Shown piece after piece: positions 25 to 49,669 of a DNA stretch of 64,000 bases. The translations under genes and the position numbers were made by a program. This stretch comes from an uncultured virus (IMG/VR IMGVR_UViG_2645727648_000011). Taxonomy: Duplodnaviria > Heunggongvirae > Uroviricota > Caudoviricetes. The notes below the pieces were generated by a model. That model ran no database searches. It saw only the letters and a list, made by a program, of their open reading frames with translations, and was not told where the DNA came from. The DNA lies in IMG/VR virus record IMGVR_UViG_2645727648_000011; one strand, written 5' to 3'. Position 1 is the first letter of the stretch, and each line of letters opens with the position of its first letter.

Positions 25-43
25 CCTTAAATGATCGGCATTA
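25..43 (-). mobile_element. IS4-family terminal inverted repeat
   Basis: Minus strand reads TAATGCCGATCATTTAAGG, like the IS4 IR and the end at 48492 (TAATGCTGGTCACTTAAGG). Confidence 0.85.
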
Positions 44-453
44 TCCCCCTGGTCATTGATAAAATAAGGCGTTCGAATACCGGAAGCACGTTGTACCCCC
101 ACTCCCTGTTTTTGTAGCGCATCAACAAAAGGTAGTGAATTCACTATCATTCGAACCGTGGCAGTCAGGTCGGTCGCTGTAAGTTCACTGGCATCGGATA
201 CCAGCCCCTGAACCTGCAACGTTTTTTCCACCAACTGAGTTTCTTTGTGGTTCGCATCAGTGCCAGCGACCTGATAGTTTCGCGCCTGCCATCCGTGGCC
301 TGCCTCGTTGATGGGAAAGAACATAACGAAGCAGTCTTCCCTCCCCTGCTTGGTTGACTGAAACCCGGCAACAACAGGTATCGAAAGCCCTGCATTATTC
401 ATTTGCGCCAGCATCTGGTGCCGGATGGCGATGTAAACCTCGTTATCCGTCAT
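44..453 (-). pseudogene. 5' part of putative tail completion/terminator gene (MTDNEVY...FINDQGD)
   Basis: Frame continues through the duplicated 10 bp into 48481-48376; joined gene would precede the sheath gene. Confidence 0.85.
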
Positions 454-811
454 CGTTTCCCGCCTCAATGCAAAGAACAGACTTCCAGCCGTCCTGCGCG
501 TACCAGTCAGCATCACCGGTGACGTCATAGCGTTTGCCGTTGAACACCAGATAATCCGGTGCATCCCCCCGTTGGATAGCGTGAATATCGTGCGAAGTGT
601 AGAGCCGCCGATAAACTTTGCCGGTCACCAGCCCCATCTCCTGTACATCCTGCGTATCCACCGCCTGCCAGCTACCCGTGACCGATTCTGGCGGATGGTA
701 CTGCGCTACCCATTTGCCAAGGTCGTCTAATGCGCGCGACTTAAACCGATACCAGAAAGCTGTCTGCTGTGGGATCACCCGTGCAGCCACGTTGTAGAGA
801 TTGCCAAACAT
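443..811 (-). CDS. Putative head-tail joining protein
   Basis: Size and synteny in neck module; start MFGNLY with RBS. Confidence 0.6.
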   Translation of the reverse strand: MFGNLYNVAARVIPQQTAFWYRFKSRALDDLGKWVAQYHPPESVTGSWQAVDTQDVQEMGLVTGKVYRRLYTSHDIHAIQRGDAPDYLVFNGKRYDVTGDADWYAQDGWKSVLCIEAGNDDG

Positions 812-933
812 TATTTGTCCTCCACTGCCTGACATCATATAAGAGCGCAGTTTTACTGCACCCTGGGATATCAGGGTGATAACATCCCGGTTAAGAGATA
901 TATTTACAAGTTAATCTGCATAAGGAAGAAACT

Positions 934-1389
934 ATGTTGAATCATGAAGATCCCCGCGTGGCGCTAACTGAATTTCTGCGCAGCATTCCACACAGCCTGA
1001 GAATCGATGAATATCTGTTTATTATTTTGATGTGCCTGGGTGAGCAACCTCCCGAAGACCTGGATGCTTTCGAACCCATAATAGAAAAATACCTGTATCG
1101 AACCGGCTACGCTGGCTTCGGTGCCGTAATTTGCACCAAAACCATCCTTGACCGGAGGCTGTCGGGAGTAATGTTAAAACTTGAACGAGCGGAAGAATCA
1201 CTGAGGATGTTAACTAACTCAAACCCTGATTTTTCTCCACACCCATTACTAAGCATGCCATTGAAAAAGCGTCAATACGCTCAAGTTCTGGAACGCTGGA
1301 AAGCTCTCTCACGCGGTGCGCTATCTGACGAAAACCTTCTTTATTTCGAACAAAATCCACAAGCGCTACAGCCGGTGACAACAGCATAA
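934..1389 (+). CDS. Unknown 151-aa moron protein
   Basis: Opposite strand to structural operon, TAAGGA RBS, AT-rich upstream region. Confidence 0.7.
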   Translation: MLNHEDPRVALTEFLRSIPHSLRIDEYLFIILMCLGEQPPEDLDAFEPIIEKYLYRTGYAGFGAVICTKTILDRRLSGVMLKLERAEESLRMLTNSNPDFSPHPLLSMPLKKRQYAQVLERWKALSRGALSDENLLYFEQNPQALQPVTTA

Positions 1390-1410
1390 AATCGCTGATT
1401 TCTTCATCTG

Positions 1411-46867: not shown

Positions 46868-46874
46868 TTAGTCC

Positions 46875-48362
46875 TTATACCAGGTTGTGCGAGCCTTCGA
46901 CCTTACGTACCCAGTCGCCTTTACCGTAAATCAGTACGTATTTCATCACGTATTCCGGCAAGCCAGATGGCCCGGTACTTTCAACAATCTGCGCGTTGTA
47001 CCAGTAGCCCTTGTCCTGGATATCGTGCCACGCTAAATCGTCACCAGACGCATCGGCCACCGCGAGTTTCTGTACATCCGAGAGCGTTTTGCCGGGGAGA
47101 ATGGTGCCGTTATTCACCGCTTTGGTCACGGCTCCGGCAATAATCATCATTGCCCTGGCCTCACCATCGCGGTTTGCAGGTACGCCGCGCGTCGCCAGCA
47201 ATAAAGAAAACCATTGCTGTGCAATGTATGCTTTTAACCATTGCTCATTGGCATGAACGCTCATGTCCAGCGGTGCAGTACCCGGCCCGCACAGGAAACC
47301 ACGCTGGTAAAACGCAATATGTGAACCCGCCACCGCCGTTTCGCCGTAATAGTTGACGCGTAATTTATCCAGCTTATCGGCATCCAGATCAGCGGTTACC
47401 TGTGCCGGGAACGTCACGCCAAACTGACGAAACATATAGTTGGTGGTGGCATTTGTGCGGTCATAGTCCGTTGCCGCCATAACCGCCATTGGTAACGCCT
47501 GAGCATAATAATTATCCTCGGTTTTCAGGTTCAGCGCCGTTGACGCTGTACCTATCAACGCCGCGCTAAAAGCCTCCGCATCCGTTGCGGAAATATTCAG
47601 ATGTAGCTGGTATTTCACGTTCTCACCTGCCACATACTGAGCAAGGGCAACGACCTGTTCGAGCGTCAGTGGGTCGATAAAAGTCGCGCTGCCGAACGAA
47701 TCCGAGATTTTCTCTGCCGCCATAAAAGCTTCCAGCGGGGTTTGCGCGGTATTGCCGGGCAGGGCTTGTCCGCGAGATAACCCCATCGCATCCGCAAGAG
47801 CGGAAGACTCAACGTTGATGTTTGCCCGCTCCGGCACACCGCCACCGAGTTCAAACGTGCCGCTGATAGCAATAAAGGTCACTCTGGCAGAAGCGAAAGC
47901 GGGTTCAGATTCAGCATTTAGCTTTTGCTGTACGGTCGAGGCAACATCCGCGTAGGACCTGGCCGTAGAAAGATCGATTTCGGTGAGTTCTTCACGGATG
48001 TTACCGATAATCACCGTGAGTGTTCCGGTAGTGATCGCCTTCAACTCATCCAGACTGGCCGCATCGCCCCCCGAAAGCGTCGGTGCCCGACCGGTTGGTA
48101 CGTAGGGTGCTACCTGCAATTCTCTCGGTTTATTGACAGGCGCAGGGCTGGTATAGCTGAAATATTGCCGGGCAAAATTCGCTTCGGGAGAGCTGGCCCC
48201 CAGAAACTCATCAATCTGGCCACTGGCGAATTCCAGCACATCACCGGACGGAATTTTTGCGTTTTGGGAAAATATGCGGCCCGTCAGTTTGCGCATCGGT
48301 ACAGCAGACGCGCCAATGACCGCACTCGCAATGCTGACATAGCGTGTTTGTTTGATTGGCAT
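46875..48362 (-). CDS. Tail sheath protein (DUF3383-like)
   Basis: 495 aa; NYMFRQF, VNYYG and NEQWLK motifs. Confidence 0.82.
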   Translation of the reverse strand: MPIKQTRYVSIASAVIGASAVPMRKLTGRIFSQNAKIPSGDVLEFASGQIDEFLGASSPEANFARQYFSYTSPAPVNKPRELQVAPYVPTGRAPTLSGGDAASLDELKAITTGTLTVIIGNIREELTEIDLSTARSYADVASTVQQKLNAESEPAFASARVTFIAISGTFELGGGVPERANINVESSALADAMGLSRGQALPGNTAQTPLEAFMAAEKISDSFGSATFIDPLTLEQVVALAQYVAGENVKYQLHLNISATDAEAFSAALIGTASTALNLKTEDNYYAQALPMAVMAATDYDRTNATTNYMFRQFGVTFPAQVTADLDADKLDKLRVNYYGETAVAGSHIAFYQRGFLCGPGTAPLDMSVHANEQWLKAYIAQQWFSLLLATRGVPANRDGEARAMMIIAGAVTKAVNNGTILPGKTLSDVQKLAVADASGDDLAWHDIQDKGYWYNAQIVESTGPSGLPEYVMKYVLIYGKGDWVRKVEGSHNLV

Positions 48363-48375
48363 GGTTAAACCTTAA

Positions 48376-48491
48376 TTAAATGCGGTGAATATCAGGATAA
48401 AGCGCTTTTACTGCCGTGGTGTTTGGGAATATTTCGCGGTGGAATGTGACGTTAAAGTCAAACGAGGGGTTCTGTTCATAATCCCCCTGGT
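48376..48491 (-). pseudogene. 3' part of the gene split at position 44
   Basis: QGDYEQNPSFDFNVTFHREIFPNTTAVKALYPDIHRI*; shares QGD codons with 43-51. Confidence 0.85.
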
Positions 48492-49669
48492 TAATGCTGG
48501 TCACTTAAGGTGACCAGCAACCTTTTTATCCGGATATTTCCTGCTCTTTACCCTCAACTCTCTCGGGTAACTTCGCTCTCTTCTACCCGGTAACACAAGC
48601 CATTTCGCCTGTTCATACAGGGTTCTCAGTTCTCCCGGCATTTTTCCCGGCGAAGCCCAGGGCAGGGTTATCAGCATCCGGATTATTTCGCTTATCGCTC
48701 CACTGAAGCTCAGCTGAAGCTCAGCTGGTAAGGCAGGTAATCTCCTTTCAGATGGAACGCCATCTGCACCATCTGATATCGCACCAGGTTATAAGCCAGC
48801 AGTACCCCCCATAGCTCCTGTCTCACCAGCTCCGGCAGGCGACTGCGTAATGTCCACCGGCTGTCCAGCATACCCTGCTTTGCTTCCCGGTAGCCCAGTT
48901 CTGTTTCCCAGCGGTGGCGATATAGCTCGCTGATATCTTTACCCGGATAGCGATTCGGGTCTGTCAGTGACGTCAGCACCTGCCTCTCTTTACCGTCTAC
49001 CCTGCGGGTCAGCAGTCTTGCCACCATTTCTTCCGGGACCCCTGGCCATTGCTTCCTGGCTCGTGGACTGGTTTTCAGGCATATCAGTTCATCTCCACGC
49101 CCCAAACGGCGAACCACCTGATACTGTACGTGTTTTTTCAACGGCAACAACCAGTGACGGTGTTCTCCTGCTGTCTGCCAGTGATGAAGCAGACCCATCG
49201 AATAAAATCCCTTATCGAACAGGGTGATACTGTTATTCGGGGTTTTCTCCGTCAGGTGTTCAGCCAGCCGCATTTCACTGACTTTTTCACTGTCGAATGC
49301 ACTGGCGGCGATCAGATGGCTGCTCAGCTCCATCAGACAAACCATTCGCACCTGAGGATAGCCGCCTTCGCCGTACTGGCTGCTGTGTTTACTGAAGACG
49401 GCTCTGTTTTCCGGCGTATCGGCGGTACGCCAGACCACGCCGTCGACAGCAAACAGATTCAGACCGTGCCATTTTGGATGTGCAGCCTGCTGATTCCAGT
49501 GCTGCTGTGTGATATCAAAAAGCTCCCGCACTGCATTTTCACCCAGAGTCTTACGGCGCTGAATGACAGCGCTGCGTGCGGTAAAAGGAGCTCCGGTCCG
49601 GTCAGTAATATCCATCAGATTGACGATTTCGGTCATCGGACGATCGCAAAAAATGGACATCCCAAGAAC
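48492..49669 (-). mobile_element. IS4-family element, 5'-truncated, transposase frameshifted
   Basis: IR TAATGCTGGTCACTTAAGG; AVDG, FDKGF and YRHRWETE motifs; 11-bp tandem duplication at 48703-48724. Confidence 0.9.

Follow-up and report, generated by a model that had tools for sequence, protein, structure and literature searches.

A circularly permuted temperate myovirus genome bounded by IS4-family ends, with an attP-like junction inside: a candidate for fusion with a bacterial replicon through insertion sequences

We analyzed a 64,000-nt stretch of DNA (hereafter the window) from the IMG/VR record IMGVR_UViG_2645727648_000011, an uncultured virus of the Caudoviricetes. The window holds a temperate myovirus genome that is circularly permuted. 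It is opened inside its gateway (neck) gene at the insertion site of an insertion sequence (IS) of the IS4 family, and it is bounded by the two ends of that element. The integrase gene and an attP-like junction lie unused in its interior. The explanation we favor, at somewhat better than an even chance, is that an Erwinia tracheiphila-type replicon acquired, by recombination between IS copies, a phage genome that was circular and carried an IS4. The features at the two junctions are listed here; ISx denotes a 1201-bp element of the IS481 family.

1..24, minus strand: last 24 nt (left-end inverted repeat) of an ISx whose remainder lies beyond the left edge of the window (the copies at 17048 and 30348 begin with the reverse complement of these 24 nt)
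25..43, minus strand: IS4-family left-end remnant of 19 bp (left inverted repeat, IRL), by identity to the L028 and Rahnella ends
44..53, no strand: target-site duplication copy 1, TCCCCCTGGT, by repeat search
46..453, minus strand: N-terminal 136 codons of the gateway gene, cut by IS4 (PF22756; 96% identity to the 171-aa homologue P0002)
54..48481, minus strand: permuted temperate myovirus genome (Pfam and PHROG scans; collinearity)
48379..48489, minus strand: C-terminal 34 codons of the gateway gene plus the duplicated QGD and a stop (homologue alignment)
48482..48491, no strand: target-site duplication copy 2, TCCCCCTGGT, by repeat search
48492..49665, minus strand: IS4-family fragment with the right inverted repeat (IRR) and ~1174 of ~1414 bp (PF01609, PF13006, NF033592, tblastn)
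49666..51576, plus strand: IS91-family element ending the IS4 fragment (PF04986, PF14319; plasmid identity)

The types of the IS4 ends were assigned from annotated Rahnella and E. coli elements. The full-length references were a 1414-bp copy on a Rahnella plasmid, E. coli IS4, and the chromosomal relatives L028 and L029, at 78-79%. In all of them IRR, the end downstream of the transposase gene, reads TAATGC(C/T)(G/A)GTCA, and IRL, the upstream end, reads TAATGCCGATC. Window positions 25-43 (CCTTAAATGATCGGCATTA) are the last 19 bp of the L028 IRL, the transposase-proximal end, with 19 of 19 bases identical (18 of 19 for the Rahnella element). From position 48492 the window (TAATGCTGGTCACTTAAGGTGACCAGCA, starting TAATGCTGGTCACTTAAGG) is identical to the L028 IRR, the transposase-distal end. 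The junctions therefore carry two different ends of one element type in a single orientation, as the earlier interpretation of this DNA, made from the letters and open reading frames alone (the sequence-only reading), had proposed. Its 10-bp repeat was found as well: TCCCCCTGGT lies on the inner side of each IS4 end, at 44-53 and 48482-48491, and these are its only two plus-strand occurrences in the window. A 10-bp duplication is also made by the related element L029. Two marks of the IS4 family, terminal inverted repeats and a target duplication of ~10-13 bp, are thus present at the junctions.

The sequence-only reading placed an IS4-type inverted repeat at both ends of the phage. The repeats are there, but a complete ~1.4-kb element is not: on the left just 19 bp remain behind the inverted IS481-family end, and on the right the element is cut near base 1174 by the IS91-family element. 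The two pieces are non-overlapping parts of one element, namely bases 1-1174 and 1396-1414 of ~1414, and the missing part was found nowhere else in the window. The right piece encodes a transposase with the DDE and IS4 N-terminal domains (PF01609, E 3e-25; PF13006, E 3e-10; NF033592, E 5e-74). It lacks the first ~55 residues, and tblastn with the Rahnella transposase covered residues 56-440 with a frame change near residue 375. This frameshift is due to an 11-bp tandem duplication near 48703 (GAAGCTCAGCT twice, window 48692-48714), which is absent from the genomic consensus IS4. In two sequencing runs that consensus continues past 49665. The element is only distantly related to E. coli IS4 (~65% DNA identity), and megablast of the IS4 part against E. 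coli genomes gave no match. The best match among four genomes of the genus of G002 and 401 genomes of the family was 79%. Three Erwinia tracheiphila plasmids carry near-identical copies (99.8-99.9%) of the neighboring IS91-family element; this match, combined with the occurrence of gateway homologues in Erwinia and its allies, points to an E. tracheiphila-type host.

The gene opened at the junctions encodes the gateway protein. Its N-terminal part matched PF22756 (gateway protein gp29 of phage E217) with an E value of 3e-47 and 160.8 bits (cut-off 27) over profile positions 1-142 of 163. A search with these 136 codons returned 42 relatives, most of them 170-171 aa long and named phage gateway protein. 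The N-terminal part ends in FINDQG and the C-terminal part starts with QGDYEQNPSFDF. We aligned the two pieces separately and unjoined to five full-length homologues of 170-171 aa. Together they covered 171 of 171 columns with no gap, and their overlap was the duplicated QG(D) alone. The proposal that a gene of about 171 aa directly upstream of the sheath gene is split across the junctions is therefore borne out.

A gateway-protein scan of genome contigs gave 16 loci, all outside the species of the window. The uninterrupted site was found in a metagenomic viral contig (L024), in Erwinia sp. OLFS4 (L002/L026) and in Mixta mediterraneensis (L003), with one TCCCCCTGGT each. On either side of these empty sites, 29-30 of 30 bases agree with window positions 48452-48481 and 54-83, respectively. 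The prophages of OLFS4 and Mixta keep the gene order of the window, at 93-96% identity, across the join from head to sheath: window 10777 down to 39, with the lysis and head genes, is followed without interruption by 48491 down to 37505, with the sheath, tube, tape measure, baseplate and fiber genes. Because the relatives run unbroken from head through gateway to sheath, the window is a circular permutation opened at the IS4 insertion. An inversion between two IS4 copies was considered and rejected, because both gene halves lie on the minus strand, where an inversion would have left them in opposite orientations.

The integration functions of the phage lie between these ends.

32662..32871, plus strand: excisionase-like small open reading frame just upstream of int, named by position and by reading; it had no family match
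32877..34055, plus strand: lambda-type tyrosine integrase with arm-binding N domain (family scans)
34183..34240, plus strand: attP core, a tRNA-Pro gene without its 5' half, extending from the anticodon loop through CCA (similarity to annotated tRNA-Pro; extent by eye)

The core is ~95% identical to annotated tRNA-Pro in every one of 5426 E. coli genomes. ARAGORN found no whole tRNA in the window, and Rfam did not recognize the tRNA fragment at 34183-34240. The int gene lies 130 bp upstream of the core, and phage accessory and tail genes follow downstream. The same contiguity of int, core and tail is present at 100% in an IMG/VR contig of another assembly (G001/L025, 15.9 kb, corresponding to window 32583-48508). 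Logan contigs of all four sequencing runs that were compared break inside the tRNA-Pro core, which indicates that the genome has the core a second time, between other sequences, as a host tRNA gene would provide. The int-core-tail junction is thus attP-like and intact inside the phage. The family scans and the second assembly agree with the sequence-only reading that int and the tRNA-Pro 3' core are internal, with phage genes on both sides.

The integrase itself is probably dead and still decaying. In nine of nine homologues (66-69% identity) the box-I motif reads TT(H/Q)ARLEV, whereas the window has TTQAVLEV, with Val216 encoded by GTG at 33522. Position 216 is probably the site of the catalytic Arg, judging from the motif, in which this Arg is the sole one; R212 of lambda falls one position off in both alignments to lambda Int. 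The HEIR, AH and Y motifs are present near the C terminus, but the full catalytic set (Arg I, His-x-x-Arg, His/Trp, Tyr) was not found. All four runs agree with the window at V216. The run of strain X1 has an additional 1-nt deletion in an A run of int at 33695, which matches the recorded 275-aa product P0045. The integrases of the related prophages are unrelated to it (29-32% identity).

Both junctions recur in other assemblies. The IMG/VR contig L023 is identical at 100% to window 5-10083 and holds the left junction from ISx through the IS4 remnant and the duplication into the gateway gene. The right junction, 48491/48492, was crossed in four of four runs by a contig that extends from the tail genes 26-27 nt into IS4. 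This comparison of read contigs covered window 30000-49999 and used four runs from four studies dated 2013-2022. Among the 24 loose contig ends listed (282 more exist), none led from 48491 into sequence of the gateway N part, and a metagenome scan for the left junction gave no match. The IS4 contigs had 29-37 times the depth of the phage-unique contigs (1591.5 against 43.6, 2099.6 against 58.2, and 1888.7 against 65.4); we put the number of IS4 copies per genome at about 30-39. ISx is even commoner, with a depth of 2200-2900 against 44-65 for the phage. The phage contigs showed uniform depth between int and sheath, at about half the level of a known two-copy segment, made up of 30000-30348 and 31549-32582. 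This segment was at 1.5-2.1 times the phage depth and occurred in an ISx-free form in all four runs; we therefore conclude that a second, mosaic copy of the stretch lies elsewhere.

Shapiro et al. 2016 (PMC4824170) is in line with the high copy number: it describes an IS4 on a 23.7-kb phage contig that is also present in 39 chromosomal copies. It also gives 792 mobile elements in near-monomorphic strains, with IS481 and IS91 among the five commonest IS families. In titles and abstracts of the literature we found neither an account of such a structure nor a natural example in which an IS had mediated the integration of a phage with an attP; this is weak evidence of absence.

An attP-type junction inside, IS ends outside and a target duplication facing inward together imply a circular or tandem intermediate and a join made without attP. 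The favored course of events would be as follows. An IS4 would have entered the gateway gene of a ~42.6-kb temperate myovirus of the E217/Pam3 type with lambda-like regulation and produced the 10-bp target duplication. The sequence-only reading had this IS4 enter a free circular genome. The circular permutation and the inner attP fit a circle, but entry into a resident prophage is at least as likely, and we regard it as more probable than entry into a transient free circle. The IS-bearing genome would then have been circular, either after excision or after entry into the cell, and one homologous crossover of the Campbell type with a genomic IS copy would have reinserted it. The partner could be one of the ~30-39 genomic IS4 copies or an IS nested in the IS4 of the phage. 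The outcome would be a prophage bounded by two IS4 ends, with the old duplication facing inward and attP unused inside. Such an element has no attL or attR, so Int and Xis could not excise it; with its split neck gene it would be locked in and decaying. The four nested IS with their own duplications, the V216 change in Int and the int frameshift in one strain are consistent with a locked-in element. We infer the circular intermediate, recombination of the RecA type, the joining IS, the order of events and a chromosomal location.

Several observations weigh against this explanation. The IS repeats at the junctions agree in orientation (IRL left, IRR right), but they are pieces of 19 bp and 1174 bp that do not overlap. 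The left piece is minimal, the right one is truncated, no outer flank is visible, and two full IS4 copies were never seen. Complementary pieces fit a join made inside IS4 by another IS equally well. Of the IS-IS fusion proposed in the sequence-only reading, the permutation and the attP-independent join therefore stand, but a crossover of IS4 with IS4 is unproven, as the non-overlapping pieces abut ISx and IS91. The left flank lies outside the window. Both window edges lie in inverted ISx with compatible phase, which leaves room for a circular record of ~64,065 bp. According to PMC4824170, the IS4-bearing 23.7-kb phage contig was assembled both alone and within a chromosomal contig. Finally, the four runs are weak as independent support, because all of them may contain the source sample and the species shows almost no variation.

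Three other explanations must be weighed, and the one closest to ours differs in the crossover alone. The same cointegration could have gone through an IS481- or IS91-family copy nested in the IS4 of the phage, so that a single IS4 was split by the whole host replicon. We consider this unlikely, although the non-overlapping IS4 pieces abut ISx (24/25) and the IS91-family element (49665/6) just as it predicts. The abundance of ISx, above that of IS4, and the commonness of the IS481 and IS91 families speak for it too. It needs a further deletion for the missing bases 1175-1395, and the window cannot tell it from later hits on two full IS4 copies. An equally minor chance belongs to the view that this is not a chromosomal prophage at all. 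The window would then be a ~64-kb circular element, in which ~15.6 kb of IS and prophage debris sit with the phage inside IS4, or an assembler join through IS repeats. The window opens with the terminal 24 nt of one inverted ISx and breaks off 89 nt before reaching that same end in another, at 62890-64000 (1111 of 1201 nt), so that a 64,065-bp circle would close exactly. The phage contig assembled in two ways points in the same direction, as do the lambda-type replication genes and the ParB-like gene of the phage. ISx makes up ~9% of the window, however, so two edges in ISx are not rare; by a rough prior, this coincidence is more probable than a record just 65 bp longer than the window. At 25-31 the sequence is CCTTAAA, whereas the 7 bp next to ISx at 62890 are ATTAATG, which does not fit one simple insertion. 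The debris holds non-IS prophage regulatory fragments that a phage circle could hardly collect, no plasmid record in the set searched matches the phage, and both junctions of unique sequence with IS recur in other assemblies.

Less likely still is the remnant of a tandem double prophage. Here the IS4-bearing prophage would have been duplicated head to tail, by unequal exchange between attL and attR or by a second integration, into the order attL-phage-attP-phage-attR. The window would be the stretch between the two IS4 copies, with the outer halves lost or moved by IS events. This predicts the same local structure, with an inner attP-type junction, inward duplications and equal orientation. 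The genome is also rich in IS-driven rearrangement, as seen in the nested IS of the window and in the 792 mobile elements reported in PMC4824170. The second, ISx-free copy of 30000-30348 and 31549-32582 in all four runs could be taken for an outer half, but the two-copy segment stops at ~32553-32582, before xis and int, and resembles another mosaic prophage. The int and tail contigs are equal in depth, at about half that of the segment. Moreover, a duplication and two separate losses would be required, each loss ending inside an IS4 copy, and family scans of the right flank (49666-64000) found no head genes of this phage.

Four IS inserted later into the phage genome.

14627..16699, plus strand: ISL3-family insertion with an NleD/XopG-like (Peptidase_M91) passenger gene and an 8-bp duplication, ATATAAAA
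17048..18248, plus strand: ISx (IS481-family) insertion with a 7-bp duplication, GATAACA
28486..29798, plus strand: IS256-family insertion near codon 17 of the phage DNA methyltransferase, with a 9-bp duplication, TCGCCCCTG
30348..31548, plus strand: ISx insertion splitting the same methyltransferase (phrog_6263 positions 21-218 and 216-546), with a 7-bp duplication, GCTAAAT

Without them the phage measures 42,619 bp by our own count, in agreement with the earlier estimate of ~42.6 kb. The transposase of ISx matches NF033577 (E 1e-82), and its duplications are 7 bp long. The methyltransferase gene (phrog_6263, window 28420-32595) was struck twice, by the IS256-family element near codon 17 and by ISx near codon 216. 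The 2073-bp ISL3-family element has a second copy at 52959-55031 that is 99.9% identical to 14627-16699. Its passenger open reading frame is similar to Peptidase_M91 and to effectors of the XopG-HopH type; a copy on a Salmonella plasmid (98.5%) is annotated as 'T3SS effector protein NleD'. An effector gene is thus carried on an IS.

The phage map begins on the minus strand with the genes for collar, neck, head proteins, major capsid, cement, protease/scaffold, a MuF-like protein, portal, and large and small terminase. The lysis genes (Rz, endolysin, holin) follow, then Q, a Dam fragment and NinB, and then the ParB-like, DnaC-like, O-like, CII-like and Cro genes of replication and regulation. 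The plus strand carries the cI-like repressor, an exonuclease and other early-left genes, the DNA methyltransferase, the excisionase-like open reading frame and int. Past the att core come HigB/HigA, two small genes and an Ant-type anti-repressor. The tail module, between 38441 and the sheath at 48362, returns to the minus strand, in the order tail fiber, baseplate, tape measure, tube and sheath. Megablast of the head region against phages gave no match, and the closest cultured phages, the Bordetella avium phages vB_BaM-IFTN, have a sheath protein identity of only ~47%. An open reading frame for an HslV/proteasome-like peptidase (phrog_1040) lies at 9856-10329 between the lysis genes and the small terminase gene. 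Two open reading frames on the opposite strand, 934-1389 (plus; phrog_26342) and 45628-46185 (plus; DUF2441), fall in stretches missing from the relatives of 93-96% identity; they are moron-like insertions in the head-neck and tail modules.

Beyond the IS91-family element, the right flank holds an ISx interrupted by ISL3, along with IS110, IS3 and IS200 pieces. Fragments of CII-like, Ant-like and Rha-like regulators lie among the IS copies at 51474-52691, 56232-58022 and 62362-62769; they are debris of at least one other prophage. The open reading frame at 61319-62149 encodes both a Y1 transposase domain of the IS200 type and a DNA-binding domain of the AlpA type. In all four runs we also saw the joints 31548/48492 and 31548/49665, in which nothing separates the right end of ISx from the outer IRR of IS4 and from the beginning of the IS91-family element, respectively. 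Such contacts between IS ends recur in this genome, so insertion of one IS may be directed at the ends of another.

If the element is chromosomal, it would be a clear natural case in which an IS, and not the phage's own attachment site, served to capture a temperate phage, with the unused attP still readable, the integrase decaying and the hit virion gene identified. In a crop pathogen that emerged recently and is nearly clonal, IS expansion could in this way change what becomes of phages. Prophage finders based on attL and attR would misplace the ends of such an element. A wider idea, to which we give little credence, is that IS copies on phages form a second, integrase-free attachment system in IS-swamped, host-restricted bacteria, through which a phage with a dead integrase or an occupied attB lysogenizes via any genomic IS. 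If so, phages on the IS route would be packaged with the help of related resident prophages. The route would also lock phages in and seed new IS copies, giving a general link between phage influx and IS expansion. Replicon fusion through IS homology is old, and the value of the case lies in a documented natural example and a warning for annotation, not in a new mechanism.

The virion module resembles that of Pseudomonas phage E217 and cyanophage Pam3, with collar gp28, gateway gp29, cement, tube gp32, hub gp41 and plug gp18. Six families of the E217 type were found (PF22755, PF22756, PF22758, PF22764, PF22759 and PF22479). In contrast to E217 and Pam3, the regulatory, lysis and integration modules are lambda- or P22-like. 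The junctions recall insertions of E. coli IS4 (insG) in prophage genes, with which they share repeats starting TAATGC, a DDE transposase, the IS4 N-terminal domain and a duplication of 10-13 bp. Unlike in a simple IS4 insertion, the ends and the duplication are 48.4 kb apart and face outward from the phage, and do not surround one 1.4-kb element.

Lambda dilysogens are tandem lysogens with an internal attP. Our element shares with such polylysogens an intact attP-type junction that has phage DNA on both sides and lies inside a bacterial replicon. It differs in that no second phage halves stand beside the IS4 ends and in that its boundaries are IS ends, not attL and attR. The F plasmid forms Hfr strains through IS2, IS3 and gamma-delta, and the P1 plasmid prophage integrates via IS1. 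In these fusions, as in the one we favor, an IS-bearing circular replicon joins the chromosome by one crossover with a resident IS, and the inserted replicon is permuted and bounded by direct IS repeats, with no site-specific integrase involved. Here, in contrast, the IS lies in an essential virion gene, both bounding IS are fragments and the crossover partner is not visible; the guest is a natural-isolate, lambda-style temperate phage that has an integrase and an attP of its own.

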